A DNA stretch of 64,000 nt from an uncultured Candidatus Saccharibacteria bacterium (GTDB lineage Bacteria; Patescibacteriota; Minisyncoccia; Phycocordibacterales; XYD1-FULL-46-19). This document shows, piece by piece, positions 6,486 to 55,014 of the stretch (positions are counted from its first letter, which is position 1; every line of letters begins with the position of its first letter). The notes beneath the pieces were generated by a model that was not told the DNA's origin, ran no database searches, and was given only the letters and a program-made list of their open reading frames with translations. The translations under genes were made by a program, and so were the position numbers. The stretch lies in the NCBI GenBank assembly GCA_964510655.1, contig CAZEAY010000002.1, positions 26,613 to 90,612 of the forward strand, given 5' to 3'.

Positions 6486-8294
6486 ATGCTATACCACTCT
6501 GATATAAAATCTGACCGACTAAGTAAAGCTGGCTTTACTCTGGTGGAAGTTTTAGTGGGAGCATTTATTTTGTCGATTATTTGTATTGGGGTTTATGGCG
6601 GCTTTGTTTCTGTTATTAAAACGGTCCGGGCGGCTCGGGTTAAGACCGATGCCATGCTTTTAGCCAATGAACAAATAGAGATTGTCCGAAATTTACCTTA
6701 CCAGGATGTTGGAATTGTGGCTGGTATTCCAGTCGGGGTTATTCCTCGAGAACAAGTCTTAACTCGGGGAGGGGTGTCATTTAAACTAACTTCAAGTATC
6801 AGGAATATTGATGATCCTTTCGATGGAACTATTGGTAGTAGTACTAAAAATGACTTATCACCAGCTGACTACAAACAACTTCAGATTGACATAGAATGTC
6901 TGGCTTGTGCGAATGGAGAATTTTTACCACAAAAAATTTATACAACGATTGCTCCTAAAAACTTAGAAACAGCTAATGGCAACGGGGCTTTATTTGTTAA
7001 AGTGTTTAATTCTAATGGTGATCCGGTTTCGGCGGCTCGTGTTCGGATTGAGAAAAGTCCAACTTTGATTGATGAACTGACGGACAATAATGGAGTCTTC
7101 GCCCTGATTGATGCTCCGCCAGGCGCCCTGGCTTATAAAGTGACCGTCACTAAAGATGGTTATTCTTCGGAAGGGACTTCGGCTATTACTACCGGAAACC
7201 CTAACCCCCTGATTCCTCCGGCGACTATTTTAGGTGGACAGGCAACACAAATAAGTTTTGCGATTGATAAGCTTAGTAACTTGGGTATTCAAGTGGTTAA
7301 CGGGGTTTGTAATCCGATTGATGGTGTTTCAGTGAGGGTTGTTGGGCAAAAAAAGATTGGACAGAACCCCGATGTTTATAAGTATGATAATATTTTAACT
7401 TCGGACTCTCTGGGGTTGATTAATCTTTCTAATCTGGAGTGGGATACTTATAGGTTCTCTTTAGCCACCACTAGTTCTTGGTTTTTAGCTGGAACATCAG
7501 TTTTTGTACCGTTGTTTGTCGCTCCCGACACGTCTCCTCAAATTCTTTTGACGGCTCTGGCTAGAAAGCCGAATGGGCTTCTGGTTTCTGTTCATGATAG
7601 TGCGACAGGTCTTCCGTTGTCAGGGGCAGATGTTACGATCGAGACACAAACACTAGTTACTAGTCAGGGGTTTTTCAATCAAACGGATTGGTCGCTTGGC
7701 TCTGGTCAGATCATCTACACTAATAATAAAATGTTTGCTGATACCGATGGTAATATAGATTTCACTAATAATCCTGGAGAAATACGTTTGCGATCATCTT
7801 TGGGTAAATTTATTGTATCTGGTAATCTTATTTCTTCTATTTTTGATTCTGGTAGCACAAGTACGGAATATAAATCTCTCCGTTTTTCACCATCCGATCA
7901 AGCTACCACGACCGGCGTTGGGAGTATTCGCCTACAATTGGCTTCTGGTAATGATCCGGCGACCACCACTTGGAATTTTCTTGGTCCCGACGGGACGGCT
8001 TCTTCTTATTATACGACGTCCAACGAGGGAATTAATTCTGTCCACAATAATCATCGTTATATTCGCTATAAAGTATTTTTACAAACAGCTAACGATTTGG
8101 TTACTCCCAATATTTCAGACATCGGCCTTACTTACACGGCGGCTTGCACTCCGCCAGGTCAGGCTTATTTTGAGGGCTTGTCTGGTGGACCACAAACTAT
8201 TTCTGTTAATCGTGATGGTTATTTGCCCTACACTTCTGCTATTGATGTCAGCGATGTTTGGCAGGAATTAAATGTTTCATTAACTGAGATTTAA
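6486..8294 (+). CDS. Large prepilin-type (class III signal) pilin-like protein
   Basis: The N-terminus has KAG|FTLVEVLVGAFIL, a prepilin peptidase cleavage/methylation motif (G followed by FTLxE) with a hydrophobic helix. The 602-aa remainder is Thr/Ser/Gly-rich. Confidence 0.7.
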   Translation: MLYHSDIKSDRLSKAGFTLVEVLVGAFILSIICIGVYGGFVSVIKTVRAARVKTDAMLLANEQIEIVRNLPYQDVGIVAGIPVGVIPREQVLTRGGVSFKLTSSIRNIDDPFDGTIGSSTKNDLSPADYKQLQIDIECLACANGEFLPQKIYTTIAPKNLETANGNGALFVKVFNSNGDPVSAARVRIEKSPTLIDELTDNNGVFALIDAPPGALAYKVTVTKDGYSSEGTSAITTGNPNPLIPPATILGGQATQISFAIDKLSNLGIQVVNGVCNPIDGVSVRVVGQKKIGQNPDVYKYDNILTSDSLGLINLSNLEWDTYRFSLATTSSWFLAGTSVFVPLFVAPDTSPQILLTALARKPNGLLVSVHDSATGLPLSGADVTIETQTLVTSQGFFNQTDWSLGSGQIIYTNNKMFADTDGNIDFTNNPGEIRLRSSLGKFIVSGNLISSIFDSGSTSTEYKSLRFSPSDQATTTGVGSIRLQLASGNDPATTTWNFLGPDGTASSYYTTSNEGINSVHNNHRYIRYKVFLQTANDLVTPNISDIGLTYTAACTPPGQAYFEGLSGGPQTISVNRDGYLPYTSAIDVSDVWQELNVSLTEI

Positions 8295-8295
8295 T

Positions 8296-8898
8296 ATGTT
8301 TAAAAAAGGTTTTACATTAATTGAAATTTTGGTTGCCATCGGTATTTTTACTGGTATTACTTTGGTTTTGAGTAATTTTCAGAAGGATATTTTTGTTAAT
8401 AATACTTTTATTAAAAATAGTTTAGTGGCGGAAAGTGAAGCGCGGGGGGCACTAAAACGAGCTATTGCCGAGCTCCGTGCTGCTTCTTCCTCTAATAATG
8501 GTCTTTATCCTTTGGCCGTTGCTGATAAAAATACCATTACTTTTTTTTCCGATATTGATCGCGATGGTTTGCGTGAGCGGGTACGCTATTTTGTTGCGAC
8601 CTCTTCACTTTGGCGGGCCGTAACCAAACCAACAGGGGAACCCTATTCTTATTTAGATAGTAATGAAAAAATTACGATGGCCGTTCATGATATTGTTAAT
8701 CCAACATCGACACCGGTTTTTAACTTTTATGATAAAACTTACAATGGTACAACTTCTCCCATGTCTTGGCCGGTTGATATTGCCAACGTCCGTTTAGTCA
8801 GAATGACGATCTTGATTGATACCGACCCTGTTCGATCACCGAAGGTTATGACTTTTTCTAGTCAAGTAATGATTCGTAATCTGAAAGACAACCTTTAA
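8296..8898 (+). CDS. Pseudopilin / minor pilin (prepilin-type N-terminus KKG|FTLIEILVAIGIF)
   Basis: It has the prepilin N-terminal methylation motif, is 200 aa, and is translationally coupled to the upstream ORF by a 1-nt gap. Confidence 0.7.
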   Translation: MFKKGFTLIEILVAIGIFTGITLVLSNFQKDIFVNNTFIKNSLVAESEARGALKRAIAELRAASSSNNGLYPLAVADKNTITFFSDIDRDGLRERVRYFVATSSLWRAVTKPTGEPYSYLDSNEKITMAVHDIVNPTSTPVFNFYDKTYNGTTSPMSWPVDIANVRLVRMTILIDTDPVRSPKVMTFSSQVMIRNLKDNL

Positions 8899-8910: not shown

Positions 8911-10389
8911 ATGTCAAAAGTAAAATTACAAATAAAGAATAAAAAAAATGGCGGATATGTGCTAATTAGTACCTTGGTTTTTGCCACTATTGCCGTAATT
9001 ATTTTGACTGGCGTGGCCTCTTGGTCCGCTACCAACTACCGTTTGGCCAACCAAACAGTAAATCGGGAAAAAGCCTTTCAAATCGCTGAAGCGGGTATTG
9101 ATTACTATCGTTGGCATTTAGCTCATTCACCTCAGGATTTTCAAGATGGCACTGGTCAGGCTGGCCCATACACACACCTGTATTACGATAAATTTGGTAA
9201 TGTAATTGGCAATTACCAATTGACCATTACCCCTCCTTTGGTCGGTTCAACGGTCGTTAAAATTGTTTCTAAGGGTACAGTTGCAAGCACTACTATTTCT
9301 CGTTCTATTGAGGTGATTTTAGCTATTCCCTCCCTGGCTAAATATGCTTTTGTGGCTAATTCTGTGATGCGTTTTGGTGAAGGAACAGAAGTTTTTGGGC
9401 CAATTCATTCTAATGACGGTATTCGGATGGACGGTTTGGCTCATAATATTGTTACTAGTGCTAAATCCACTTACGATGATCCTGATCATAATGGAGGTTT
9501 AGAATTTGGTGTGCATACCCATATTCAAGCGCCTCCCTCTAGTGGTCTGAGTAATGGAGGTTTATCAAGCGAAGCGCCTCCTTCTACTGTTCCTGTCCGG
9601 TCCGATGTTTTTATGTCTGGACGCCAGTTTCCCGTTCCTGCTATTGATTTTAATGGGTTAACTTCTAATTTGGCTAATTTGAAAACCTTAGCTCAGTCAG
9701 CCGGACGTTACTTTGCCTCTTCTGGAGCCCAAGGTTACAATATCGTCTTAAAGACTAATGGGACTTTTGATTTATATAAAGTTACAGCTTTAGTTTCGGC
9801 GGCTCATTCTTGCAATAAACAAAATTGGCCAGATCAGGAGGGTTGGGGAACATTTTCAGTTGGGACTCAAGTCTTCGTTGCTAATTATCCTTTTCCGACC
9901 AATGGAGTAGTTTTTGTCGAGGATAATGTTTGGGTGGAGGGTAAGATTAATAATGCTCGATTAACAATCGCTTCCGGCCGGTTTCCTGAGAGTGTTAACA
10001 CTAATACGAGTATTTCATTTACTAAAGATATTTTGTATACCAATTATGATGGTCGAGATGTCCTTGCTTTAATTGCCCAAAATAATGTTAATGCGGGAAT
10101 GACCAGCGCTGATACGATTGAAGTAGATGCTGCTCTTATTGCTAAAAATGGTCGAGTCGGGAGATATTATTACAATTCTAGTTGTCATCCTTATGATGAT
10201 CGGACTAAGATTAGATTGTACGGTATGATTGGGACTAACCAGCGTTATGGTTTTGCTTATACGGGAAGTCAGAGTGGGGGCTATGCAATAAGGGAAGTTG
10301 TTTATGATGGTAATCTGCTTTATGGTCCACCTCCTTCTTTTCCTTTGACTAGTGATCAATATGTAACGATTAGTTGGAGGGAAATTTAA
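8911..10389 (+). CDS. PilX-like type IV pilus minor pilin/assembly protein (N-terminal TM helix GGYVLISTLVFATIAVIILTG)
   Basis: A PilX-N-like hydrophobic N-terminus follows a short basic leader. It is 492 aa and is the last gene of the pilus operon. Confidence 0.55.
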   Translation: MSKVKLQIKNKKNGGYVLISTLVFATIAVIILTGVASWSATNYRLANQTVNREKAFQIAEAGIDYYRWHLAHSPQDFQDGTGQAGPYTHLYYDKFGNVIGNYQLTITPPLVGSTVVKIVSKGTVASTTISRSIEVILAIPSLAKYAFVANSVMRFGEGTEVFGPIHSNDGIRMDGLAHNIVTSAKSTYDDPDHNGGLEFGVHTHIQAPPSSGLSNGGLSSEAPPSTVPVRSDVFMSGRQFPVPAIDFNGLTSNLANLKTLAQSAGRYFASSGAQGYNIVLKTNGTFDLYKVTALVSAAHSCNKQNWPDQEGWGTFSVGTQVFVANYPFPTNGVVFVEDNVWVEGKINNARLTIASGRFPESVNTNTSISFTKDILYTNYDGRDVLALIAQNNVNAGMTSADTIEVDAALIAKNGRVGRYYYNSSCHPYDDRTKIRLYGMIGTNQRYGFAYTGSQSGGYAIREVVYDGNLLYGPPPSFPLTSDQYVTISWREI

Positions 10390-15777: not shown

Positions 15778-17346
15778 ATGAATTACAGTATAAGTAAATC
15801 ACCTCAAAATACAATAGTGGATAAGTCAAAACAGGATAATTTTTTAAACGTATCTCCCGTGGGTCGTCATCGAGATTGGCATCTGGTTTTTATTTTGTCG
15901 AGTTTGAGTTTTTTGACCAGTATGTTTTTAAGTAGTTGGCTGTCCTTGTCTTGGGTGCAAGCTGGTTGGTTTTTATTGCTGGCGGCTATTTTGGGTTCTG
16001 TTTTTGCTTTTTATTTTAAGGTTTCTTGGTCGGTAGTTTATTTTTTTATTATTATCTTTGTTGGATCGGCTGGAGGTATTCTTCGCCCTTTGCTTGAACA
16101 AGATTATAGTCATGAGTTGGATAATTATCTGGCTCATAAAGTTCTTATCTCGGCCGAAGTCGTTTATTCTCCGGATGAACGGGAAACTTTGACCAAGCTT
16201 GTTGTACACCCTCTTAATTATCAGGCCAAGATTTTACTTACCACCGAACGTTACCCGCAATACTCCTTGGGAGATGTTATTGCTTTGAGTGGTAAAATTT
16301 CTCGACCAAAAAATACTTTTTCAACCAATGGAACGTTTTTTGATTACCAATCTTATCTCGCTAAGGATGGCATTTATTATGAAATGTATAAACCAAACGT
16401 TTCTCTTATTTCTCGGCCGACAACCGGGGTCTTTGTTTTTTTATCTAATTTAAAATCGTGGTTGATTAAAAAGATTAACGATATCTTACCAGAGCCAGAG
16501 TCTTCTCTTTTGGCGGGTATTTTATTGGGGGCAAAAAAGGGATTGGGGACGGAAGTTACTAATAATTTTAAGCTGGCCGGAGTGTCTCATATCTTAGTTT
16601 TATCGGGTTATAATATCACTTTTGTGGCCTTGATTTTATTGCGCTTGTTTTCTCTACTTCCACGATTGTTCGGGGGTATTTTGGGGTTTGCCAGCATTAT
16701 TATTTTTGGTCTTTTGGCTGGAGGTGGATCAGTGGTGTGGCGGGCGGTTCTAATGTCTCTGATTGCTCTCTACGCCAAACTGACTGGTCGGATTTTTGAT
16801 GTTACGGCTGCGATTATTTTTTCTGCGGTGGCTTTGGTGGCTTATAATCCTAAAACATTGACCAGCGATTTAGGTTTTCAATTGAGTGTCTTAGCGATGT
16901 TGGGACTCGTTTATTTATCTCCAGTCCTGAAAGATAAAATCTTTTATTGGCTTCCAACAAGATTTGGATTGCAAGAATTAATTTGCTCAACTTTTGGAGC
17001 TCAGTTAGCGGTCATTCCTCTTTTGTGGCAAACGGTGGGACAAGTTTCTCTTTGGGGTTTTGTTTCTAATTTAGTTGTCTTGCCCTTCGTCCCTTACTCG
17101 ATGATGATTGGAGCTTTGGCTGTTTTACTCAGTCAGTTGTCTTTTGTCGTGGCCCAACCAATAAGCTTTCTTGCTTATTTACTCCTTAAAATAATCTTAT
17201 CTTTGGTCGAGTTTTTTGCTCAGCTAAGTTTAGTTGCTTCAATTGGTGGCGAAGGTTTCTCTTTTTTGATTTGGCTTATTTATTTACCGCTGTGTTATCT
17301 AACAGGAAGATATTGGTATAAGATTTATAAAAAAATTACAGTATAA
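15778..17346 (+). CDS. comEC: ComEC/Rec2 DNA-uptake channel protein, competence (membrane) domain part
   Basis: It has N-terminal TM segments plus an OB-like region, and the competence-domain motif LAGVSHILVLSGYNITFVA followed by multiple TM helices. Confidence 0.8.
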   Translation: MNYSISKSPQNTIVDKSKQDNFLNVSPVGRHRDWHLVFILSSLSFLTSMFLSSWLSLSWVQAGWFLLLAAILGSVFAFYFKVSWSVVYFFIIIFVGSAGGILRPLLEQDYSHELDNYLAHKVLISAEVVYSPDERETLTKLVVHPLNYQAKILLTTERYPQYSLGDVIALSGKISRPKNTFSTNGTFFDYQSYLAKDGIYYEMYKPNVSLISRPTTGVFVFLSNLKSWLIKKINDILPEPESSLLAGILLGAKKGLGTEVTNNFKLAGVSHILVLSGYNITFVALILLRLFSLLPRLFGGILGFASIIIFGLLAGGGSVVWRAVLMSLIALYAKLTGRIFDVTAAIIFSAVALVAYNPKTLTSDLGFQLSVLAMLGLVYLSPVLKDKIFYWLPTRFGLQELICSTFGAQLAVIPLLWQTVGQVSLWGFVSNLVVLPFVPYSMMIGALAVLLSQLSFVVAQPISFLAYLLLKIILSLVEFFAQLSLVASIGGEGFSFLIWLIYLPLCYLTGRYWYKIYKKITV

Positions 17347-27978: not shown

Positions 27979-28818
27979 ATGAAATCCTACAAACCAACAA
28001 CCGCTTCTCGTCGTCACACCGTTACGATTGACTATCGTAAGCTTTTGAGTGGTGACAAACCAACTAAGTCTTTGACTAAGGGGGCCAAACGTCATGTTGG
28101 CCGCAACAATGTTGGCCGCATCACCGTTCGTCATAAGGGGGGTGGACATAAGCGAACTTTCCGCACCGTAGATTTTATTTATAATAAATTTAATATTCCC
28201 GCCAAGATTGAGACTATTGAATACGACCCAAATCGCTCCGCGTTTATTGCCCTAGTATGTTACAACGACGGCGAACGACGCTATCACGTTGTTCCTAGGG
28301 GGATGAAAGTAAACGATCGTTTCATTGTTTCTGAGGCCGCTGACCTAAAAACCGGCAACCGTTTGAAATTAAAAAATATTCCCGTTGGTACTTTTATCTA
28401 TAACTTAGAGATCAAACCTTTGGCTGGTGCTAAAATGATCCGCTCTGCCGGAAACTACGCCGAAGTTATGTCCAACGATGCTGGCTATACGATGGTTAAA
28501 ATGCCATCGACTGAAGTGCGCAAATTTGATGAAAATGCTTGGGCCTCAGTTGGAGAAATTTCCAACGAAGACCATCATCTAGAAAACTATGGTAAGGCGG
28601 GTAAATCTCGCTGGAAGGGTATTCGTCCAACTGTTCGCGGTACCGCTATGAACCCAGTTGATCACCCATACGGAGGAGGAGAAGGCGTCCAGGGTCGTGG
28701 TCTACGCCGAGCCAAGAGTATGTGGGGTAAGCCAACTGGCGGAGAGAAGACACGTACACCTAAGAAATACTCCAACTATCTTATCGTTTCTCGTCGGAAA
28801 GTAGGAAAAAAGAAATAA
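27979..28818 (+). CDS. rplB: 50S ribosomal protein L2
   Basis: It has the motif GRNNVGRITVRHKGGGHKR and is highly conserved as L2. Confidence 0.95.
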   Translation: MKSYKPTTASRRHTVTIDYRKLLSGDKPTKSLTKGAKRHVGRNNVGRITVRHKGGGHKRTFRTVDFIYNKFNIPAKIETIEYDPNRSAFIALVCYNDGERRYHVVPRGMKVNDRFIVSEAADLKTGNRLKLKNIPVGTFIYNLEIKPLAGAKMIRSAGNYAEVMSNDAGYTMVKMPSTEVRKFDENAWASVGEISNEDHHLENYGKAGKSRWKGIRPTVRGTAMNPVDHPYGGGEGVQGRGLRRAKSMWGKPTGGEKTRTPKKYSNYLIVSRRKVGKKK

Positions 28819-29212: not shown

Positions 29213-29226
29213 CTTGACGACATGTA

Positions 29227-29807: not shown

Positions 29808-29810
29808 TTT

Positions 29811-32800
29811 ATGACTAAAATTAAGTATTTTTTATTGAGTTTCCTGCTATTGTTTCCGTTTTTTGTTTCTGCCGTTGATGTTTTTACCACTAGTTACTTA
29901 AAGGAAAAATATCGACAGACTTATGCCACTTGTGGAGTTAAAGCTGTGCCTGGGAGCGATACTGTCCATGATTTGGGTCCCGTTGACAGTTATGGTCAAT
30001 GTTCTGGCTCCTATCCCGACGGATTGGCCGCCGACGCTTATTTGCCTGGTTGCAACCCAATAGCAGGAGAAACCTGGGGGCCTTGGGAGGGTCAGCTATT
30101 CCATGAAAAATCCGGGGCCACTTATCGTCCAGAAGAAATACATCAAGGTTCTACTGCTTATTGTGGTGTGGGCGTAATTAAGTGTGGGGAAGGCTTTAAT
30201 TTCAATGGGGTCACTATGACTGGTGATTATTGTAAGGCTCCGTACATCAAAGATGGTTTTTTTAGTAAGGATGGACAATATGTTGATGAATACTGTATTG
30301 ACTATCAAGCTCCGACTTTTTTAGGTAAATATATTACAGATGGAACAAAAATGGTTCAGTCTTGTTGCACTTCTTTAGCTCACCATGAGACTCACACTTT
30401 TCCTATTATCGGAGATGTAGCCAATGTATTGAGCCAGTGGAACTTGCCGCTGGCTGGAAATTTGGCCGCCGGGGTAAACAGTGCTTCACCGGTAGATTTG
30501 GTTAATAAGGCTAGTTACGATGAATGCTGTAAGGCTCCTGACCAATGTTATGAATTTGGTTTTAATGTGATTAACGCTAGCTTCGCCTTAATAAATCCTC
30601 CATCCACAGGGGCGGCCATCTTAATGACAATGGCTAATAGCATCTTAAATTCGGCGACGGGAGAAATTGGTAAGTATAAAAATCAAGTCTGTCGTTCAGC
30701 TGAACAATCTCAAAATGATCAAACTGCCGCCTCTTATATTGATGATGCTGCCACAATTACCAAACTAGTTAACACTTCTGGGGTAACAGATGTTTTAGCT
30801 AATATAACTTTCTATTTAAGAATTTTACCTACTTATAATAAATGTGGTGGTGGTTCTGCAAAAAATAATTCACCCAAGACTGGTCTCCTAGCCACAACGC
30901 TTGCTTCTAGTGATACTGTCTCAGGTTTCTCATTTACTCCCGAGGCTGCGGCTGGGGGTAAGAGCTGTTCCTTTAAGGTGGTAAAAGGTGGAGTGGATAC
31001 AAACCAACGTGTTTATGTTGCCAATAATTATGTTTTTTTGGATAGTCCAACTTTGAGTTTGAATTCTTCAAAACTCTTTAACAATCAGCCTGGTTACTCC
31101 ACCTCAATGTTAGAAAGAGCTAGGCAGATGGTTAGTCCAGCCATTTACACCCCTAATAAAACTTCTTGGTATTGGAATGGAATTAAGTTTGTTCAAGTAG
31201 ATGATCCTCTGACAGCCTTAAATTTGAATGTTATTTATGCTGGTGTCTCTGCGACTTCACCCGATTTCTTTAATTGTAATGTCAATGATATTCCGAATGT
31301 CGGTCATAGTAATTTGTTTAAAACATTTTTAGCCACTGCTCCAAGTTTATCAATGTGTCCAGTCATTAATTATGGTGATGCTAATAATGACAATCTTAAT
31401 AATTGGACGGACGTTCAGTGTTATCTAAATTTGTTAGGGGATAAGAGTTCCCCCGCCTGTAATCCAGATAAAAAATTAATGGCCTTTAATGACAATAGCG
31501 GGACTGTTATTACTGTCAATGACCTTATGAGAGAGTTGCATGTTATGTCTGACCCCAATCAGCTTATTTATTACAGTTCTGTTAAAAAATATTTAGCTGA
31601 GTCACCTTATAATACAAACTTGCAGTCATGCTTGTTTGGTCGCAATCCAAAAAATAATACATCTTTATTTTCTCCAGCCTTGCCAGATGTTGTGTATAAG
31701 GCGGTCTGCGGAAATAAACTAATTGAAGCTGGTGAGTCGTATGAAACCTGTCCCGCTGATGTGCCGGCACCGGTTGTTAATCCTACCCTCACCTTGATTC
31801 CCTCATCTGGCCTCACTCTTTCTCGGGGTGGAGTGCAGGTTTCAGCAACCACTACTCAATCTCTAGCAAATAATTCCGCAATCTCTTTAACTGCCACTAT
31901 ACCAGCTTCAACTTATTCATCTCGAGCTAGTTCGGTCTCTAAAAAAATCACCTGGACAGGAGTTGATCAAACTATTTGTCCACCTAAGACTGTTGATTGC
32001 AAAATAACCAGTGGAACAGTTTCTTGTTTAGCTCTTACTTCCACTTGTAACTTTACCCTTACTAAAAACACAACAATCCAGCCCAAGTTAGTTCAAATGG
32101 TTGGTATTCAGATTCCTGATACTCCTGCAGTTACTAATTTCACCGCCCCCACTTTTGACTATGGTGCTGGTCAACCATCTCATCGTCTCTGGTTAACCTT
32201 CAATGCCACCGGCTCAGTCAGTTCAATCACCAAGGTCCCTGGTTATGATAAATGCTTTAGCTTCACTGCTTCAACTGATACTGCCTCAGCCGCTTGTCCT
32301 CTTAACCAGCCTATTAAACCTGGTACTAAGTGTGGTATCTACTTACAGGCTAGTAGTGATCGTTGTGTCGTAGCAGTTAAATATCTAACTGGTACTAACA
32401 CGACTAATACTCGTTACTTTGAACAAATCTTCTACAATTCCACCCCTACCACTACGGGGAAAGATACGATTAAGGATCGGGGGACTCGAGCTCCGTCGCC
32501 AGATGATTTTATTCCAGTGGTCCTAACTTCTCCTGTGCCAACGCCAACACCGATTCCTGCGCCAGCTCCTGCTACAAGTCCAACTCCAGTCGTTAATTAC
32601 GCCCTCTCCCTCATTCGTCCTACTACTGGATCTCTAGCTTTCTACTCTTCTCTCAAACTTGTTGCCGCTGATATTACCACCTCTCTGCCAGCTGGCACTA
32701 AGGTTGATCTAAAAGTGAAACGCTCTCCAACTACTCAATCGGGAAGTTCCAGAGCCACTGGTTACAAACTTCGCGTGAACTGGGCTGGCACTTCTTGTCC

Positions 32801-33368
32801 AGAATCAATCACAGACTGCAGTGTTTCACCAGCGGCCATCACTTGTCCCGCGATTGAAACTACTTGTCTCTTTGACTTAACTAAAGATACTCGTGTAGCT
32901 CCTTCATTTACAGCAACACCCGAGTATCCCATCGATACCACCCCTAAAACCCTAACCCTCTCCGTTAACAACCAATCTACTGGCTACATTATCGGTAGCA
33001 AAGACATGGCTGCTAATCCCGTAGAATTCAACTGCGGTCAGGTGGAAGAAATTGGTAATGCTAAGATCTGGCCTGGCACAGCTTGTTCCCAAACCTATCC
33101 TCATGGAACAATTATCACTTTAGTGGCTTCTGTCCCCGGTAATCTCTCTGATGGTAAATCACTCACTCGTGGCACCTTCTCTGGCTGGGGGAGTAATTGT
33201 ACCTCGATGACCACTTGGACTGATATTACTGGTAAATCCTATCAAGCCTGTCAAATCAAACTTGAGGCTAACAAAACCATTTCTGCTTCTTTTACGGGAC
33301 CGACTTCGTGGTTGCTCCGGCCGTTTATCCAGCTCGGGAATATTTGGAACTCATTGTGGTCACGGTAG
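29811..33368 (+). CDS. Giant (1185 aa) Cys-rich secreted protein with internal 4-Cys repeat modules, a Pro/Thr linker, and a C-terminal domain shared with ORF 49365..52550
   Basis: It has the signal peptide MTKIKYFLLSFLLLFPFFVSA and many paired Cys. It has two internal repeats (CPPKTVDCKITSGTVSCLALTSTCNFTLTKNT and CPESITDCSVSPAAITCPAIETTCLFDLTKDT). A linker PVPTPTPIPAPAPATSPTPV follows. The C-terminal ~120 aa (NQSTGYIIGSK...FNCGQVEEIGNAKIWPGTACSQTYPHGTIITLVAS...) is homologous to the C-terminus of the 1061-aa protein. Confidence 0.7.
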   Translation: MTKIKYFLLSFLLLFPFFVSAVDVFTTSYLKEKYRQTYATCGVKAVPGSDTVHDLGPVDSYGQCSGSYPDGLAADAYLPGCNPIAGETWGPWEGQLFHEKSGATYRPEEIHQGSTAYCGVGVIKCGEGFNFNGVTMTGDYCKAPYIKDGFFSKDGQYVDEYCIDYQAPTFLGKYITDGTKMVQSCCTSLAHHETHTFPIIGDVANVLSQWNLPLAGNLAAGVNSASPVDLVNKASYDECCKAPDQCYEFGFNVINASFALINPPSTGAAILMTMANSILNSATGEIGKYKNQVCRSAEQSQNDQTAASYIDDAATITKLVNTSGVTDVLANITFYLRILPTYNKCGGGSAKNNSPKTGLLATTLASSDTVSGFSFTPEAAAGGKSCSFKVVKGGVDTNQRVYVANNYVFLDSPTLSLNSSKLFNNQPGYSTSMLERARQMVSPAIYTPNKTSWYWNGIKFVQVDDPLTALNLNVIYAGVSATSPDFFNCNVNDIPNVGHSNLFKTFLATAPSLSMCPVINYGDANNDNLNNWTDVQCYLNLLGDKSSPACNPDKKLMAFNDNSGTVITVNDLMRELHVMSDPNQLIYYSSVKKYLAESPYNTNLQSCLFGRNPKNNTSLFSPALPDVVYKAVCGNKLIEAGESYETCPADVPAPVVNPTLTLIPSSGLTLSRGGVQVSATTTQSLANNSAISLTATIPASTYSSRASSVSKKITWTGVDQTICPPKTVDCKITSGTVSCLALTSTCNFTLTKNTTIQPKLVQMVGIQIPDTPAVTNFTAPTFDYGAGQPSHRLWLTFNATGSVSSITKVPGYDKCFSFTASTDTASAACPLNQPIKPGTKCGIYLQASSDRCVVAVKYLTGTNTTNTRYFEQIFYNSTPTTTGKDTIKDRGTRAPSPDDFIPVVLTSPVPTPTPIPAPAPATSPTPVVNYALSLIRPTTGSLAFYSSLKLVAADITTSLPAGTKVDLKVKRSPTTQSGSSRATGYKLRVNWAGTSCPESITDCSVSPAAITCPAIETTCLFDLTKDTRVAPSFTATPEYPIDTTPKTLTLSVNNQSTGYIIGSKDMAANPVEFNCGQVEEIGNAKIWPGTACSQTYPHGTIITLVASVPGNLSDGKSLTRGTFSGWGSNCTSMTTWTDITGKSYQACQIKLEANKTISASFTGPTSWLLRPFIQLGNIWNSLWSR

Positions 33369-33438
33369 TTTGAATAAAAATTTTAAGTTAAAAAAAGAAC
33401 CCCAGGTGGTAATCCTGGGGTTTTGTTTATCCTTTGGT

Positions 33439-33945: not shown

Positions 33946-34394
33946 TGGCGGGCTCCTTATTTGTGAAATGAGACCTAATTATTTAGGATCTTCTTTAATT
34001 ATACCACAATTTGTTAAAAAGTACAATAGAAAGGTGGTTCTAATCCCTTTTTTACTTACAATCTTTCCACCTAAAAGAGGTGCCTTCTGGTGAATTGTTC
34101 AAGATATTGCTTTGTTTGACATTATTATTTTTTTTGCTATGATTAGGTTCGAGTTAGTTTAGTGTTATTTACTATTAACTCGATTTGCAAAAGTCTTGTT
34201 TTTCTGGGACCCCTATCGAGGTTCGATATCCGTGTGCTCAGTCGGGAGGCGGATGGACCGTGGTATAGGATTTTTATTTTGCGATTTTTATTCGTAAAAA
34301 TCGCGTCCGAATCAGCAGATTCGCGGCTTGGCCGCAGGATGGTTGTTTCGATGCAAGGATATAGATAAATATTAAAGAAAAATAGTTTAATTCA

Positions 34395-34748
34395 ATGCCA
34401 AGATCACTTAAAAAAGGACCATATATCGAAGAACGGTTAATGAAGAAAATTACCGGCAAGAAACCACAGGAAACTGGGGTAATTAAAACGTGGTCACGTC
34501 GTAGTCAGATTAGTCCAGAAATGGTAGGTTTTACTTTTGGTGTTCATAACGGCAAGAGCCATATTGAAGTTTTTGCCACTGAGGATATGGTTGGACATCG
34601 TTTGGGGGAATTTTCTCCAACTAAGAAGTTCTTACGCCACGGAGGTAAGATGCAGAAAGAGTTAGAACAGAAGAAGAAAGAGTCAGAAATTGCGGCGGCT
34701 AAATCTGCCAAAGAAACCACCGCGGCGGGAGCTGGTAAGAAAAAATAA
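34395..34748 (+). CDS. rpsS: 30S ribosomal protein S19, with a Lys-rich C-terminal tail
   Basis: The S19 core is present (SLKKGPY, WSRRS, HNGK). Confidence 0.9.
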
Positions 34749-45087: not shown

Positions 45088-46245
45088 ATGAAGCGGAGTT
45101 TGTTGGGATTGCTTTTCCTGGCCCTGTTTTTGGGACAGATGTCCTGGGCGGTGGAGCTTACGGCTCCCAAGCCCATGACCACTGATACGATTGACGTGCG
45201 CAACATTGCGCGCGCCATCCTGTCTCATCAGGATACTGTTGCCTACAGTGGTAACTTCGGCTACGAAGTGACCCATCTGGATGGTAATGTGGTTTCGACA
45301 CAGGGCACGTTTGAGGGGCGTTATTTCCCCAAAGACGGTCGGGAAATCTTTATGTTTACCGCATTGTCGGTATCATACGACGGGAAGAACCCCATCATTT
45401 ACACCGGTGATCCGTTTGAGGTTTTTCCCTATCCGATGAAGGGGACGGCGAAAAATCTCTGGATCGGAATCAATGGTTTCGACCAGAACGGCCAACCGAC
45501 TCGCTATGGCTCTTTCGCCACCTCAGTGTGGGAGAAAGGTCAACCAATCATCTTTGGAATGAGGCCTGGCTATCTGCCGGTGATCATTCCTTTCAGTTTG
45601 AATGGTCGAGACCCAGCCGGTGTGGGTTTGATCATTGATGGTTGGGGTGGAGTGCCCTTTGGCTATAGCTCAGACCGTGGAGGTTTTGTGGCCTGGCTCG
45701 ACCCATCCACGTTGTACGGCGGTCGAGTTGTCGACTTGTTCAATGGACAGGCGACAATTTTGACTATCCCCAGTTTCAGTTACGGTGATCTGCCATCTTC
45801 AACTGAACCACGTGGTAGCATCGCAAACTTTCAGTGGGAAAGTGGCGTGAACTCGATTAAGTTCGAGAAAGGCTTCTACGACCCTCGTGGCGATGGACAT
45901 TACAATACGTCCATTGTTGAGGAGGGGAAACTTGTCCCGGCCGCAGTGTATATTGTGGAGCCGGGAGATCTGCAGACTTCAGCTCTGTACGGTGCCTTGT
46001 TGGACTTCGCTGGGCGGCTTCAAATTGAAGTTTTTACCGCTCCCGGCCAACGTCTGGTACTGTTGGATAAGTCGTGGAGTAGTCCTTCCCAGGTTCTCAA
46101 CTTTGAGGTGCCGGCCGGCTATCATTCGGTTATGATTACCGTGACCAAATCGAACGGTCCGGTGGCTATTCCCGAATGGTATGTCTGGGACCCGAACAGG
46201 TTTTACCTGATGGTGGGACGCAGTGGCCAGGGTGGAAAGGGCTAG
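45088..46245 (+). CDS. Secreted protein of unknown function (385 aa, signal peptide), on a high-GC islet
   Basis: An SD TAAGGAG sits 6 nt before the ATG. It has the signal peptide MKRSLLGLLFLALFLGQMSWA. G+C is about 50-55% by eye, versus roughly 38-40% for flanking genes. Confidence 0.6.
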   Translation: MKRSLLGLLFLALFLGQMSWAVELTAPKPMTTDTIDVRNIARAILSHQDTVAYSGNFGYEVTHLDGNVVSTQGTFEGRYFPKDGREIFMFTALSVSYDGKNPIIYTGDPFEVFPYPMKGTAKNLWIGINGFDQNGQPTRYGSFATSVWEKGQPIIFGMRPGYLPVIIPFSLNGRDPAGVGLIIDGWGGVPFGYSSDRGGFVAWLDPSTLYGGRVVDLFNGQATILTIPSFSYGDLPSSTEPRGSIANFQWESGVNSIKFEKGFYDPRGDGHYNTSIVEEGKLVPAAVYIVEPGDLQTSALYGALLDFAGRLQIEVFTAPGQRLVLLDKSWSSPSQVLNFEVPAGYHSVMITVTKSNGPVAIPEWYVWDPNRFYLMVGRSGQGGKG

Positions 46246-49364: not shown

Positions 49365-52300
49365 ATGAAAAAAGTTATTTTGGCACTGCTGTTCGTCTTT
49401 ATGATGATCGTTGTGCCTTTTTCAGTTCAAGCTCAGACTGTTGCTGAGCTTCAAGCTATAATTGCTAGTTTGCAGGCTCAGATTGCAGCTCTGGTTGGTG
49501 GGGGCGGAGGAACAGTTGACATTCCACCAGTCACCCCTACTCCGTCCTGTTACACCTTTACCCGTGATTTATGGGTGGGAAGTGTGGGCGACGATGTCAG
49601 GGACTTACAATTATTTTTAAACAGAGAAGTTGGTTCTAGTCTTCCGACGACCCCTTACTTCGGTAATGAAACCAAGCTGGCTCTTATTAAGTTTCAGAGA
49701 GCAAATGGTATTCCATTAACTGGATACTTCGGTCCTCTTACGAGGGCAGCAGTATCAGCAAAAAATGCGGGGTGTGTTGTTGTTCCACCATCAACGACAA
49801 TGAGTTTTATTGATCCAAAAGCCGGAGAGGTGGTTAAAGCGGGAACTGCCTATATGGTTAATTGGGGTGGTTCATGGAGTGGAAATGATTCCTTCAATAT
49901 AACCGAATTCTTAGATAGCGGGAAAGATTTTATTGTTTCTGGACTTACTCAAGAACAGGCGGGATGTCCTGGTTATGGCAAAGGGGTATGCAGTTTTTCA
50001 TGGACCCCTAAGGAGGCTTCGTCTAGAGCTCAATTAGCCATTCAGCGACAATATAACGGGGGAGGCAAAGGTGGGGGAGATATAGCATATTCCGAATTTT
50101 TTTCTGTAGCAGCGGGAAATCAACAAAATAGTGGCGGAGAAGCTTATATTCAGGGAATACCAACACTATCTATCAGTCAAAATTATCGGGATGGGTACAC
50201 TTCGCGCTCAGCGCTAACTATTACGGCGAGAGGAGTTCTGAATTCTAGAGGTGGAGATTCCTATGTTTACCAACAGTCCGGCAGTTTAGGCTTTTACGCT
50301 AAAAGTATGTCTGGCAAGAATTTACCAACACAGGGTACTGCGATCTCTTTTACTATGAACGCTCCAGTTGTCACTGATAGGCTTGGTAATTCTTACTATA
50401 AACTCAGTGAGGGCACTCCTTACTCCTTTACGCAGACAGTTTCTTATGACACCGGATTAATGTTTGGGGGAGTTTATAAGGGAATGTTGTCTCATCTTTC
50501 TTACTTCCGTGACGTAAACGATGTTGCTAATAATATTAATCCAGTGGGAGTTGAAGTGGGTCCTTACAGTAGTCCATCAGCTTATGTCGTTGGAGAAAAG
50601 GGTCCATATCTTACTTCTGCTATTGAAATGGGTAAAAATGAAGTTGGGATGCTTTATCGGGTAAATGGTGAAAGACTAGACGGTAATTCCGTAGTCTACG
50701 TTGACGGTTCTGTCTATGCAAAACAGCCAGATATTGCTTTACCTGCCAGCAGAGATAGTTTATTGTTTGGCTCTCAACCGCTTTCTCCTGGAAATCATTA
50801 TGTTTATGTTGTAAACCCAACAACGGGTCGCAGTAATACTGTTTATTTGCAGGTAGGAAATACGACAAATGAGCCCTCTCTAACTGTTACGACTCCAAAC
50901 GGTGGTGAAATTTATTATTCGAATGATCTACAAGTTTCTTGGCAGTCAAATTATAATTCTCAGTCAGTAAAAGTTCATTTATATAGTCCGATTGATGGAG
51001 ATAAGTATGTTTCTCCAAACCTTAATAGTACGATTGGTGGGAATTCCTTTATTATCCCAGCTGGGACAATAAGAGCTATGAATTCCGGGCAATACAAGAT
51101 AAATGTTTGTGATGATAATCAATCTCCTTCTGGAGATGGCCTGTCAGGAAAGTCCCTTTGTGATTTAAGTGATGATTATTTTACCCTTAAGGGAAGTACA
51201 TCTAATATTTTCCCTGTCGCTAACCCGGTCATCAGTTCCTTTACTGGACCAAACGTTATCACCGCTGGTCAGACAGGAACTTGGACTGCCAGTTTAGCCT
51301 CTTCTTCTGGTCCTGGCTATACTTACTCTATTGATTGGGGAGATGGTTCTGGTTTCCAAAATATTACTAACCCAGCTGTCGCTACCTCAAATATTCGCGG
51401 AACCCATTCTTATGCCAGAGCTGGATCATACGATGTCACTTTTAGAATTTCTTATTATGCGAGTGTTACTTGTGTGAGAGCTCCTTGTAATCCGGTGGCA
51501 CGGACGGTAGAGGCTAAGAATGTTGTCACGGTGGCGGCTGCGACTACTCCTACTAACGGCTGGTGTGGTTCAGCTAATGGTCAGTCATATCCTACTCAGC
51601 CAGACTCAAGTCTCACTTGCTCCAGAGGGACCAGTGCGGATATGAGAACAACAACTACTGGGTGGGCGTGGAATTGTTTGGGTACTAATGGAGGAATTCC
51701 TGTCTCTTGTTGGGCGACTAAGTCAGTAGTGGCTCCGCCAACATCTGTAGATTTGTCGGTTTCTCAGACGATTAGTTCCAATCCATCTCTTGAGAATATC
51801 TATGAAGATAGTCAGGTTACTTTTACGGTAGAAGTTAACAATCCAAGTCAGACATCCTTAGCTGATGTTACTGGTTATTGGATTGTTAATGGAGTAACTT
51901 TCAGTATAAACAAAATGACTGGTAATACCTCCGCTATTACGGTCCCTGCCAATAAAATTTTCCCTGGGCGAAACAATGTAAACTTCAAGATTTATCCACC
52001 GGCTTCAATGAACGAACAAAACACTTGGAATAATACCGTTGATACTTATTTCAATGTTAAAACTCGTACTGTTGAGTCTGATGTACCTCGTACTTTGACA
52101 ATTAATATCGATAACCAATCTACTGGTTATGTAATTGGTGGAAAAAATAATGCTCAGGGTATAAGTGCAATTGAGTTCAATTGTGGACAGCAGGAAGAGG
52201 TTGCTAATGCTAAGATTTGGACCGGTACCGCCTGTTCCCAGACTTATCCAAATGGCACAATTATCACTCTAGTTGCTTCCCATACAGGACTCTTGAAACC

Positions 52301-52550
52301 AGATAATAAAGCGATTGTTCGGGGAACTTTTGGTGGTTGGGGTAATAGTTGTAACTCAAAATCTACTTGGACTTCTATTTACGGTGAAACCTTTGAATCG
52401 TGTTTAGTCAATCTTAATCAGGATAAAGTGATTAATGTTAGTTTTACGGCTCCAGCCTCGGGTTCTACAGGGTTGAACATTTCCTCTGTGAATCAGATGG
52501 CTAATCTTTTGCAATCACTTCAGACTATCCTTAATGGTCTGAAACGCTAG
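49365..52550 (+). CDS. Giant (1061 aa) secreted protein with an N-terminal coiled/Gly segment, a peptidoglycan-binding (PG_binding_1-like) domain, a long beta-rich region, and a C-terminal domain shared with ORF 29811..33368
   Basis: It has the signal peptide MKKVILALLFVFMMIVVPFSVQA. A PGBD-like segment follows (DLWVGSVGDDVRDLQLFLN...GYFGPLTRAAV). The C-terminus is NQSTGYVIGGKNNAQGISAIEFNCGQQEEVANAKIWTGTACSQTYPNGTIITLVAS...SFTAP and the tail is NQMANLLQSLQTILNGLKR. Confidence 0.7.
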   Translation: MKKVILALLFVFMMIVVPFSVQAQTVAELQAIIASLQAQIAALVGGGGGTVDIPPVTPTPSCYTFTRDLWVGSVGDDVRDLQLFLNREVGSSLPTTPYFGNETKLALIKFQRANGIPLTGYFGPLTRAAVSAKNAGCVVVPPSTTMSFIDPKAGEVVKAGTAYMVNWGGSWSGNDSFNITEFLDSGKDFIVSGLTQEQAGCPGYGKGVCSFSWTPKEASSRAQLAIQRQYNGGGKGGGDIAYSEFFSVAAGNQQNSGGEAYIQGIPTLSISQNYRDGYTSRSALTITARGVLNSRGGDSYVYQQSGSLGFYAKSMSGKNLPTQGTAISFTMNAPVVTDRLGNSYYKLSEGTPYSFTQTVSYDTGLMFGGVYKGMLSHLSYFRDVNDVANNINPVGVEVGPYSSPSAYVVGEKGPYLTSAIEMGKNEVGMLYRVNGERLDGNSVVYVDGSVYAKQPDIALPASRDSLLFGSQPLSPGNHYVYVVNPTTGRSNTVYLQVGNTTNEPSLTVTTPNGGEIYYSNDLQVSWQSNYNSQSVKVHLYSPIDGDKYVSPNLNSTIGGNSFIIPAGTIRAMNSGQYKINVCDDNQSPSGDGLSGKSLCDLSDDYFTLKGSTSNIFPVANPVISSFTGPNVITAGQTGTWTASLASSSGPGYTYSIDWGDGSGFQNITNPAVATSNIRGTHSYARAGSYDVTFRISYYASVTCVRAPCNPVARTVEAKNVVTVAAATTPTNGWCGSANGQSYPTQPDSSLTCSRGTSADMRTTTTGWAWNCLGTNGGIPVSCWATKSVVAPPTSVDLSVSQTISSNPSLENIYEDSQVTFTVEVNNPSQTSLADVTGYWIVNGVTFSINKMTGNTSAITVPANKIFPGRNNVNFKIYPPASMNEQNTWNNTVDTYFNVKTRTVESDVPRTLTINIDNQSTGYVIGGKNNAQGISAIEFNCGQQEEVANAKIWTGTACSQTYPNGTIITLVASHTGLLKPDNKAIVRGTFGGWGNSCNSKSTWTSIYGETFESCLVNLNQDKVINVSFTAPASGSTGLNISSVNQMANLLQSLQTILNGLKR

Positions 52551-52734: not shown

Positions 52735-55014
52735 ATGTTTAAGAAAATTGTAGCTTCGCTCGTATTGGTGTTTATTCTTGTTCCAATTTTAACAAAAAAT
52801 ATTTCTTTTTTTGGCTTAGAGAAAATACTAGCACGGATTCAGAACCAAATGACCGCTGGACTTTTTGTTAGCTGTCTCGATTCGTCAGATAACAGTTCAA
52901 CAAGCAATGTGAGTTGTACAGAAATATCAGGTTTGTTTGTGGAACAGCCAAATTCTAATGAGCACGCTAATTCTTTTTCTAACGCGGTAAAGAGGGAAAA
53001 AACTTTTAAAATTAACAACTCCTTACTCGATGGGACTAAATTAAAAAAAGGCGTCCAGATAGATATTCCTCTTTTTTCTGATGCTAAATTTAAAGGACGG
53101 GTTGAAGAAATTATTTTCCGGTTACCAACTAGTTTCACTTTGATTGGTACTATTAATCGTGATCGGGCGGGAAAATTTTATTGGACTAGAGAGGGAGATG
53201 CCTCCTCAATAGATATTTCTTCGTCTGATGGTTTGTATGAGGTTAGACCCGTTTCCAACGGTAAACATGTTGTTAGTGAGATCAATGAAGATAAACTGCC
53301 TCCGTACGATGATACCTTGTTGGTTGATAACGATATTGTTAGTACTGGAACTTTAGATACTTCTTCGTCTTCAGTTGACTCTAGTGGAAATACAATAGTG
53401 GATGTCTTGGTCGTTTACACTCCAGCCGCCAGAATAGCCGCCGGGGGAGTTTCTGGGATAACATCTAACATTCGTTTGGCTGTAGATAAGGCTAATCAAG
53501 CTTACTTGAATAGTGGGGTAAAAATAAAACTAAATCTCGTCGGTCCTAATGGTGACCCCTATGAAGTTGCTGGTTATACCGAGACAGGTGATTCCCATGT
53601 TGATTTATCACGTTTGGCTGGAACTTCAGATGGCTATATGGATGAAGTCCACAATCTAAGAAATACATATGGAGCAGATCTGGTAAATTTAATTGGGCAA
53701 AATATTGGGTCTGTCTGTGGGACAGCTTATCTAATGCGTTCAGTTTCTTTGTCCTTTGCTTCCTCAGCTTTTTCTGTGGTGGCTCGTGGTTGTATTAGTA
53801 ATCATAGTTTTGCTCATGAACTCGGACACAATATGGGTGCCGCTCATGATGTGGCGAATGCTTCAAGCGCTGGAGCCTATCCTTATTCGTACGGTTGGCG
53901 TTGGGCGGGATCTAGCGGGGCTGTTTTTCGCAGTATAATGTCTTATTCACCAGGGACGAGGATTAATTATTTTTCTAATCCTGCTGTTTTGTATGATGGC
54001 ATACCAACTGGTGTAAATGAGGCTAATAATTCTCTTACTTTAAATAACACCGCCCCCACAGTTTCTCAGTTTCGTAATTCTCCCGATCTTATTTCGCCCT
54101 TAGTCTCAATTACTAATCCTGTTTCTGGATCTACCTATATTTCATCTCAGATTCTACCAATTTCTGTTTTAGCCAGTGATAATGTAGGGATTGCGCGAGT
54201 AGAATTCTATGACAATGATACGATAAAAGGAACTATAAATAGTGCTCCTTATTCCTATAATTGGAACATTAATTCTACTAATAATGGTGCTCACCGCTGG
54301 ACAGCTAAGGTCTACGATACCTCTGGTAATAATGCTATCTCTGACCCAGTGGGAATAAATGTCGATATTCCTAATCTGGATGATGTTGCTCCGGTTGTGA
54401 CTATTGTCAGTCCAGCAGCTAGTTCGACAGTCTCTGGTGTTGTAAATGTTTCGGTAAATGCAACCGACAATCTTGGAGTTTCTAGTGTGGAATTTTATTT
54501 AGATAATGTCTTAAAAACAACTAAATCAGTGACCCCTTACGTTTTTGCTTGGGATACTAAGACTGTAGTTGATGGAGTTTACTCACTTAAGTCTAAAGCT
54601 TATGACATAGTGGGAAATGTTGGAATAGCTGGACCACTTAATGTAATTGTTAAAAATGCTAGTCTTGTAGATACTATTCCACCATTGGTAACAATAAAGG
54701 GACCGTCGGTAATAAGTAACAAGAATAAAACTTTTACGGCTTCTTCGTCGGATAATGTTGGGGTGGCAAAGGTTGAATTTTATCTAGATAGTGCAACTGC
54801 TCCATTTATCACTGACACTAGTATGCCTTACAGCGCCACCATAAACACCAAAAAACTTTCTGTTGGTTCTCATATTATTTTCGCTAAAGCCTATGACTTG
54901 TCTGGTAATACTGCTTCCTCGAGTATGTCCTTTTCTTATGGATTGGCTTATAACTTATTTAATCAATTGGCCAATATTTTGGTCTCCGTTGGGACAATCC
55001 TTGGTCTTAGGTAG
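52735..55014 (+). CDS. Secreted zinc metalloprotease (HExxHxxGxxH, reprolysin/metzincin-like) followed by about 4 tandem Ig-like domains and a conserved C-terminal tail
   Basis: An N-terminal anchor or signal (LVLVFILVPIL) is present. The catalytic motif is FAHELGHNMGAAHD. Tandem ~90-aa repeats each carry ...DN(V/L)GV(A/S)(R/K)VEFY(L)D.... The tail NQLANILVSVGTILGLR matches the tail of the preceding giant protein. Confidence 0.7.
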   Translation: MFKKIVASLVLVFILVPILTKNISFFGLEKILARIQNQMTAGLFVSCLDSSDNSSTSNVSCTEISGLFVEQPNSNEHANSFSNAVKREKTFKINNSLLDGTKLKKGVQIDIPLFSDAKFKGRVEEIIFRLPTSFTLIGTINRDRAGKFYWTREGDASSIDISSSDGLYEVRPVSNGKHVVSEINEDKLPPYDDTLLVDNDIVSTGTLDTSSSSVDSSGNTIVDVLVVYTPAARIAAGGVSGITSNIRLAVDKANQAYLNSGVKIKLNLVGPNGDPYEVAGYTETGDSHVDLSRLAGTSDGYMDEVHNLRNTYGADLVNLIGQNIGSVCGTAYLMRSVSLSFASSAFSVVARGCISNHSFAHELGHNMGAAHDVANASSAGAYPYSYGWRWAGSSGAVFRSIMSYSPGTRINYFSNPAVLYDGIPTGVNEANNSLTLNNTAPTVSQFRNSPDLISPLVSITNPVSGSTYISSQILPISVLASDNVGIARVEFYDNDTIKGTINSAPYSYNWNINSTNNGAHRWTAKVYDTSGNNAISDPVGINVDIPNLDDVAPVVTIVSPAASSTVSGVVNVSVNATDNLGVSSVEFYLDNVLKTTKSVTPYVFAWDTKTVVDGVYSLKSKAYDIVGNVGIAGPLNVIVKNASLVDTIPPLVTIKGPSVISNKNKTFTASSSDNVGVAKVEFYLDSATAPFITDTSMPYSATINTKKLSVGSHIIFAKAYDLSGNTASSSMSFSYGLAYNLFNQLANILVSVGTILGLR

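Follow-up and report, generated by a model that had tools for sequence, protein, structure and literature searches.

Two large secreted proteins encoded by the same DNA end in nearly the same domain and have otherwise nothing in common. What is this domain, and what does it do at the end of unrelated proteins? The question is raised by a 64-kb stretch of DNA (contig CAZEAY010000002.1, positions 26,613 to 90,612), hereafter called the window. The two proteins are encoded by the open reading frames (ORFs) denominated ORF1 and ORF2, and the shared domain is about 120 residues long and features four cysteines. By sequence comparison, it is in all probability a divergent, loop-expanded and lineage-specific subfamily of the PF18998 superfamily, present in single copy, and not a new fold family. 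The features involved are the following.

29811..33368, + strand: ORF1, a secreted Cys-rich giant of 1185 residues (38 Cys), with the Sec-type signal peptide MTKIKYFLLSFLLLFPFFVSA
32946..33302, + strand: shared domain, copy 1 (ORF1 residues 1046-1164), putative loop-expanded 4-Cys relative of PF18998 repeats (BLASTP, hhalign, MAFFT, AlphaFold2, Pfam and reciprocal hidden Markov model, HMM)
49365..52550, + strand: ORF2, a secreted protein of 1061 residues with a Sec-type signal peptide (Pfam and sequence comparison)
52089..52454, + strand: shared domain, copy 2 (ORF2 residues 909-1030), identified by BLASTP, MAFFT and reciprocal-HMM analysis, with an ortholog on the JGI contig L004

The domain shared by ORF1 and ORF2

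Residues 1045-1166 of ORF1 and 908-1032 of ORF2 are identical at 72 of 125 positions (58%), with 77% positives and an E value of 3e-41 (BLASTP). The value was obtained under composition-based statistics, so that a resemblance of composition only, a doubt raised in a preliminary description of the window, does not hold. The runner-up segment reaches only E 0.061, and the remaining 900-1000 or so residues of the two proteins are therefore unrelated. The similarity is thus genuine, non-compositional and confined to the C-terminal ~120 residues, as the preliminary description had proposed. The four conserved Cys that it had mentioned do not vary in any of the five family members known (C1075, C1092, C1130 and C1147 in ORF1), and Cys counts are even in both ORF1 and ORF2 (38 and 16). 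Its residue ranges, 1030-1160 and 905-1030, were roughly right, the N-terminal edge being about 10-15 residues off; the interval 32900-33368 assigned to the feature holds the domain, but takes in also the end of a different internal module and a separate tail, both described below. No third copy of the domain was found in the window by tblastn, using either domain as query and all six frames. At the DNA level the two copies are 64% identical, and conservation is therefore at the protein level, with no recent DNA duplication.

When ORF1 and ORF2 were scanned as whole proteins, the domain matched nothing in Pfam at E<=1, and nothing above threshold in NCBIfam and among PDB sequences. Word-indexed homolog searches started from the ORF1 domain, or from an alignment of five sequences, similarly found nothing. 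Relatives came only from an exhaustive HMM search, in which a profile built from both window copies was compared to 1.84 billion representative proteins. Five proteins only scored below E 1e-10: ORF1, ORF2, P0003, P0004 and P0005. Weaker matches, at E 4.5e-6 to 1e-3, are of the PF18998 type (Flg_new_2, 'Divergent InlB B-repeat domain'; 'Bacterial repeat domain' in UniProt), and include P0006, P0008, P0009, P0010, P0012 and P0014. P0008, P0009, P0010 and P0012 are tandem PF18998 arrays, recognized by Pfam at E 1e-17 to 4e-109. In P0006 the repeat pattern was seen by eye, and Pfam gave no match. Residues 352-466 of P0014, a protein of 608 residues, correspond to a sub-threshold, loop-expanded PF18998-like repeat (E 0.0038, 17.6 bits), and the loops expanded are the same two Cys-Cys loops that are expanded in the shared domain. 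This suggests that the Pfam model consistently overlooks PF18998 variants with expanded loops. P0007, P0011 and P0013 were also considered as relatives and rejected as false positives, being unrelated repetitive proteins.

The five-member domain alignment (A2) was compared by hhalign to an alignment of 13 canonical PF18998 repeats (A3). The two match with a probability of 98.1% and E 6.9e-14, over columns 1-80 of the 81 of the template, with four insertions in the query. In the joint MAFFT alignment (A5) the four Cys, the GT.(I/V)TL and F.GW motifs and the terminal strand are in register, and the insertions fall between them. The canonical pattern of ~80 residues, TLTV..G.G.V...GIxCG..C...Y..GT.VTL.A.P..F.GW.G.C...C.V.M...V.A.F, is kept, both Cys pairs included. 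The spacing between C1 and C2 has grown from 3 to 16 residues, that between C3 and C4 from about 4-7 to 16, and two more insertions are found elsewhere. In the reciprocal direction, an HMM of the canonical repeats picked residues 1086-1162 of ORF1 (E 1.5e-4), P0003 and P0004, and no other ORF in the fetched loci.

Several points weigh against this assignment. The isolated ORF1 domain hits PF18998 as sole Pfam family with 10.4 bits and E 0.68, and the top family member reaches E 0.39; the shared domain is below the gathering threshold of PF18998, which is set at 23.6 bits. The canonical repeats aligned in A3 were picked among the matches of the domain profile, and the comparison is hence partly circular, though their Pfam scores are independent. 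The tandem organization of PF18998 repeats is not found, as each protein has one significant copy. No solved structure matches the domain by sequence among PDB entries. AlphaFold2 gave an unusable model from the two-sequence alignment (predicted local distance difference test, pLDDT, 45). When the alignment was combined with canonical repeats, the pLDDT rose to 80, with a predicted template modeling score (pTM) of 0.74, nine strands and no helix; as this second alignment already holds PF18998 repeats, the model gives no separate support to the relationship. Foldseek found for it only weak, generic beta-sandwich matches in the PDB (pilins, CBM20; best E 5.8e-3, template modeling score 0.36), whereas its weak matches in BFVD speak for the assignment, as they include phage proteins described as 'Bacterial repeat domain-containing'. 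The InlB B-repeat proper has been described as a beta-grasp fold (PMC12415215); the latter bears a helix, whereas the model is all-beta, and identity at the fold level is not established. Lastly, the disulfide pairing and the spacer or binding function that complete this picture are features that we infer.

Carriers of the domain and the C-terminal tail

The shared domain is absent from the 185,579 GTDB species genomes scanned. A scan of JGI metagenome contigs added one locus, L004, which hosts a fragment of an ORF2 ortholog. The carriers that can be placed all come from one Vogelbacteria-like lineage of Patescibacteria. Domains are 71% identical in ORF1 and its ortholog P0003, 86% in ORF2 and the L004 fragment, and 50-59% in paralogs. 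Orthologs are more alike than paralogs, and the duplication therefore took place before these organisms diverged. No sign of recent cassette exchange or tip-swapping was seen.

Four architectures have been identified. In the first the domain ends a Cys-rich giant (ORF1 and P0003); in the second it follows PG_binding_1 and PKD domains (ORF2); in the third (P0004, 1119 residues) it is found with a GDSL lipase, a GH43-like region and a PKD domain; the fourth is a short PG_binding_1 protein (P0005). The module had been called portable, or swappable, on the basis of the two window copies, and its location in P0004 and P0005, behind other N-terminal parts, bears this out. ORF2 is organized, from the N-terminus, as signal peptide, N-terminal helix, PG_binding_1 (75-129), PKD (619-696), a different 4-Cys module, a Fn3-like region, the shared domain and a tail. 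No more than ~25 residues separate the domain from the C-terminus in ORF1, ORF2, P0003 and P0005. P0004 is the exception: there the domain is internal, spanning residues 818-935 of 1119, and another module and a linker stand between it and the tail. Signal peptides are found in all carriers, and a surface or extracellular role is therefore reasonable.

The tail is a second element, found on unrelated secreted proteins of the lineage. It is a strictly C-terminal amphipathic helix of ~20 residues fitting the consensus …[GN]Q[LMI][AG]N[IL]L…L..L[KR]-COOH. A further protein of the window, ORF3, and a helix next to the signal peptide of ORF2 have to be introduced here.

33306..33365, + strand: C-terminal tail of ORF1, SWLLRPFIQLGNIWNSLWSR, a divergent variant kept in P0003 and a weaker assignment
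49434..49499, + strand: N-terminal amphipathic helix of ORF2, QTVAELQAIIASLQAQIAALVG, adjoining the signal peptide; its motif is found together with the tail
52473..52547, + strand: C-terminal tail of ORF2, LNISSVNQMANLLQSLQTILNGLKR, found at the exact C-terminus by an HMM made of outside tails only
52735..55014, + strand: ORF3, a reprolysin-like M12 metalloprotease of 759 residues with three Big_7 domains (Pfam), lacking the shared domain and ending in the tail
54943..55011, + strand: C-terminal tail of ORF3, LAYNLFNQLANILVSVGTILGLR, 52% identical over 29 residues to the ORF2 tail (tblastn, E 0.086)

ORF2 ends in …VNQMANLLQSLQTILNGLKR, the tail being preceded by the shared domain and a short linker, and ORF3 ends in …FNQLANILVSVGTILGLR. 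P0004, P0005 and two further proteins of contig L003 end in …[LI]GQ[MI][AG]NIL……L[KR], and the ending of ORF1 and P0003 is a shorter variant, …QLGNIW…. The tail-bearing genes of the relatives are located at 3629-6616, 6817-9822 and 10001-13360 in L003, and at 2666-3961 in L002. An HMM built solely from four tails of other organisms was run on 3,624 ORFs. It recovered the C-terminus of ORF2 at E 5e-5; the best non-seed match after ORF2 was the C-terminus of ORF3, at E 0.71, a value of no significance by itself. ORF1 was not recovered by this HMM, and its tail is for this reason the weaker assignment. Tails were not found in the ORFs of 80 other Paceibacteria loci, nor in 118 homologs of the M12 protease from outside the lineage, the sole carrier being the L003 ortholog P0016. 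Tail and domain are independent, since the shared domain is missing from ORF3 and from two L003 proteins that are nonetheless provided with tail and signal peptide.

The tails measure ~18-20 residues, have a mean Kyte-Doolittle hydropathy of 0.0-1.1 and a hydrophobic moment of 0.26-0.51, and their last residue is a single K or R. They were considered as transmembrane anchors, and are too short and too polar for this. They were also considered as DNA repeats or terminators, which was rejected, because synonymous positions differ and the sites lie upstream of stop codons. The synonymous differences between ORFs indicate therefore that the tail is kept at the protein level. The helix of ORF2 fits the motif T[VI]AEL.A.I..LQAQ[IL], followed by AAL. 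This motif is carried by four of the 3,624 ORFs, all four also tail-bearing; those other than ORF2 are the L003 genes 3629-6616, 6817-9822 and 10001-13360.

The tail is a candidate, and may function as a lineage-specific sorting or assembly signal. It is conceivable, and we say so tentatively, that tail and N-terminal helix make up together a previously undescribed lineage-specific signal for sorting, retention or assembly; the main novelty would then reside there, and not in the 4-Cys domain. One possibility is that tail and N-terminal helices pair or oligomerize, and tether exoproteins to the envelope with neither sortase nor transmembrane anchor.

Proposed role and alternative explanations

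The shared domain would be a small, beta-rich and non-catalytic unit of Sec-exported cell-surface proteins, in a Vogelbacteria-like Patescibacterium of the Candidate Phyla Radiation (CPR). C1-C2 and C3-C4 would form disulfides, stapling both expanded loops, and the stapled loops would provide a lineage-specific surface. Located at the C-terminal end, or close to it, in extracellular proteins that are unrelated for the rest, the module may work as a rigid spacer, or as a unit binding a ligand or a cell, and present or position at the cell surface the N-terminal parts, be they PG-binding and PKD domains, a lipase or a Cys-rich region. Retention, sorting or assembly would be mediated probably by the tail helix and not by the domain. 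The role as spacer or binding unit is suggested by analogy, and follows what has been proposed for the 'periscope' domains made of B-repeats and for the Cys-rich surface proteins of CPR bacteria. B-repeats of the InlB type serve as 'periscope' or spacer domains and take on binding roles in addition (PMC12415215); for the large, Cys-rich extracellular proteins of CPR bacteria, a function in attachment has been put forward (PMC4736985).

The best surviving alternative refines this role more than it excludes it. The domain could be a lectin-like module, or one binding carbohydrates or host cells, serving adhesion to a host bacterium. CPR bacteria are thought to be episymbionts attached by large Cys-rich surface proteins (PMC4736985). 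The two lineage-specific loops are conserved, and among the weak Foldseek matches is the starch-binding CBM20; in P0004, moreover, the domain is joined to GDSL and GH43-like regions that possibly act on carbohydrates. As no match to a carbohydrate-binding module or lectin is significant, and binding-site residues are not assignable, this is a possible but doubtful refinement.

Alternatively, the domain itself could be a C-terminal secretion or sorting domain, like the C-terminal domain (CTD) of the type IX secretion system (T9SS), needed for export or anchoring and with no later role. Its size and beta-rich nature, the varied cargo and the position near the C-terminus in four of the five carriers all fit. 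The internal position in P0004 does not, and ORF3 and the two L003 proteins have tail and signal peptide and do without the domain. Sorting-signal models found nothing at E<=1 in ORF1 and ORF2 (NCBIfam, Pfam) or in ORF3 (Pfam), no T9SS, sortase or exosortase genes turned up among the scanned ORFs of the 64-kb window, and homology points to an ordinary surface repeat. We regard this explanation as unlikely. The preliminary description had offered anchoring or host binding, or else uptake or secretion, as functions of the domain: a role at the surface is sustained by the signal peptides, while an anchoring or secretion signal is disfavored by P0004, by ORF3 and by the wider occurrence of the tail.

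As a third explanation, the domain could be a novel 4-Cys fold of separate origin, its short beta-strand motifs and Cys residues having come to resemble PF18998 by convergence. The sub-threshold Pfam score, the lack of a fold match in the PDB and the insertions, which take up about 40 of the 120 residues with no counterpart in PF18998, would agree with it. Convergence is hard to reconcile with an hhalign match spanning the full template, with collinear motifs and four aligned Cys, with HMM matches obtained in both directions, and with P0014, which bridges the two forms; it seems quite improbable, and relationship to PF18998 is preferred.

A polymorphic toxin or surface-variation locus, where recombination would join one constant module to various payloads, may be dismissed as highly improbable, for although one module stands behind differing N-terminal regions and the island of secreted-protein genes to which ORF2 belongs is not the same in all relatives, polarity is reversed (conserved C-terminus, variable N-termini), toxin, immunity, Rhs, CDI and PT-domain matches are missing in Pfam and NCBIfam, orphan cassettes or extra copies are missing in the window, the duplication is old, as the divergence of the copies and the closer likeness of orthologs argue against recent recombination, and what comes after ORF1 is a bidirectional terminator and a convergent lipoprotein-like gene, with none of the immunity type; the toxin-like nature surmised in the preliminary description is accordingly abandoned.

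The module represents a new and uncommon form of a familiar surface repeat; it does not amount to a novel type of system. In CPR bacteria the building of the surface and the attachment to hosts are largely obscure, and most large secreted proteins are unannotated. Linking the domain to the very common PF18998 repeat provides a partial architecture for ORF1 and ORF2, a modest gain in annotation. The tail, often accompanied by the N-terminal helix, is a more useful lead than the domain, as it marks a set of unrelated exoproteins in one lineage, the cargo being an M12 protease, a GDSL lipase, a PKD protein, a PG-binding protein and a Cys-rich giant. If a true sorting or assembly signal, it would define the surface proteome of the lineage, and point to an undescribed anchoring mechanism in ultra-small bacteria.

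Genomic setting and comparison with known systems

ORF1 has no sequence match in Pfam, NCBIfam or the PDB. Its ortholog P0003 (1463 residues) is encoded at the same site, between rplB and rpsS, in the Logan contig L001. Two internal modules of ORF1 carry four Cys each, and are different from the shared domain.

31770..32105, + strand: internal 4-Cys module 1 (ORF1 residues 654-765; Cys 723, 730, 739 and 746), kept in P0003
32586..32924, + strand: internal 4-Cys module 2 (ORF1 residues 926-1038; Cys 996, 1003, 1012 and 1019), identified by pairwise comparison with module 1

The two are 34% identical (E 1e-14), with the four Cys in register. Their existence had been noted earlier, but each is ~110 residues long, and only the Cys-bearing C-terminal halves had been delimited. 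Module 1 has no Pfam or PDB match, and direct searches of Pfam, NCBIfam and PDB sequences gave nothing above threshold for the two modules. They could be degenerate copies of the same repeat as the shared domain, since the register is plausible; hhalign probabilities are just 6.8% against PF18998-type repeats and 2.8% against the shared domain, a level at which the modules do not score as relatives. The N-terminal ~650 residues of ORF1 (29811-31760, 22 Cys) and its middle region (32106-32585; …GQPSHRLWLTFNATG…CGIYLQ…CVVAVKYLTGTNT…) are both kept in P0003, and match nothing in Pfam, NCBIfam and PDB sequences. P0003 has a few hundred additional residues inserted in its N-terminal part.

ORF1 is found inside the S10 operon, in an insert of ~5.5 kb (28819-34394) that separates rplB (27979..28818) from rpsS (34395..34748). 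The insert contains also two small membrane- or lipoprotein-like ORFs upstream of ORF1 and one convergent lipoprotein-like ORF downstream. A bidirectional terminator-like hairpin is located 3' of ORF1 at 33396-33424, and ahead of rpsS, at 34116-34143, lies a strong promoter-like site (11/12 matches, with TG). In 33 fetched loci having both genes, almost all from Paceibacteria relatives, the gap between rplB and rpsS is variable, with a median of 720 nt, and measures <=2.2 kb outside the lineage. G+C content is raised (0.45) across the 3' part of ORF1.

ORF2 and ORF3 make up an island (49202-55070) between a gene of the SLOG family (LDcluster4) and rplT-infC. The same site hosts P0005 in L002, and in L003 a block of four genes for large secreted proteins (3521-16422), P0004 among them, which encode an M12 protease, a PKD protein, a GDSL lipase and an M11 peptidase. 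The island thus varies in size between relatives, from two genes in the window to four in L003. Where other Paceibacteria loci reach beyond the SLOG gene, infC is mostly located close behind it. The small 4-Cys module of ORF2 (CG..GWxWxC..NGG, residues ~729-790) is followed by a weak Fn3-like region (813-897). This second 4-Cys module, which the preliminary description had missed, has the pattern CG.ANG..Y.TQ…C..G…TGW.W.C.G.NGG…C.A.K and is found in ORF2 (~51549-51734) and at residues ~940-1005 of P0004, with 44% identity (E 4e-16). It has no Pfam match.

Other genes of the window are tuf, the S10-spc ribosomal protein cluster, secY, adk, map, infC-rplT, smpB, ftsH, type IV pilus genes and comEC. 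The SecY protein is closest to those of metagenome-assembled genomes of Paceibacteria-group Patescibacteria (79% for one of Candidatus Vogelbacteria, 75% for one of Patescibacteria). The type IV pilus cluster (74-10389) includes a PilB-like ATPase (3403..5157), a PilC-like protein (5246..6469) and N_methyl pilin-like proteins (6486..8898), and is flanked by Cys-containing ORFs with no Pfam match (74..1387, 1600..3288 and 8911..10389). ComEC is encoded at 15778..17346. G+C content reaches locally 0.47 at 44001-46245, versus ~0.40 elsewhere, in a tract including an ORF of 385 residues (45088..46245) that has no Pfam match.

Among known systems, polymorphic toxins of the Rhs, CDI (contact-dependent inhibition) and MafB type have a conserved N-terminal delivery region joined to a variable C-terminal toxin tip; here only the C-terminal ~120 residues are common, and ORF2 is followed by the metalloprotease gene ORF3 with no adjacent immunity gene. 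The tail, with its QMANIL core, may be compared to sorting signals (LPXTG/sortase, PEP-CTERM/exosortase, T9SS CTD). Like these, it is strictly C-terminal, found on unrelated exoproteins and lineage-restricted, and it is absent from homologs of the same enzyme in other phyla; unlike these, it lacks any motif of the LPXTG or PEP type, as well as a transmembrane helix followed by a basic cluster. The Cys-rich extracellular proteins of Peribacteria (PMC4736985) belong to a different phylum-level lineage, and the likeness is one of description. They are similarly giant, unannotated, strain-variable and provided with signal peptides, and have been proposed to act in attachment.

The InlB B-repeat of Listeria, or Listeria-Bacteroides repeat (PF09479, Flg_new), belongs to the same wider group, as PF18998 arrays also match PF09479. 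It shows no direct sequence match to the shared domain, and is a beta-grasp with a helix, as opposed to the all-beta model. InlB is not known to have conserved Cys pairs. Its role as 'periscope' spacer and receptor-binding unit (PMC12415215) is the kind of function proposed for the shared domain. The closest relative is PF18998. The domain of the window differs from it for length (120 residues versus ~75-80), for four insertions, for the 16 residues found in both Cys-Cys loops, for occurring in single copy and not in the usual tandem arrays, and for being confined to a narrow lineage of Patescibacteria. It resembles PF18998 in being part of secreted, multidomain surface proteins, in being non-catalytic, and in a core of ~80 columns that is collinear from the initial TLTV to the V.A.F strand.

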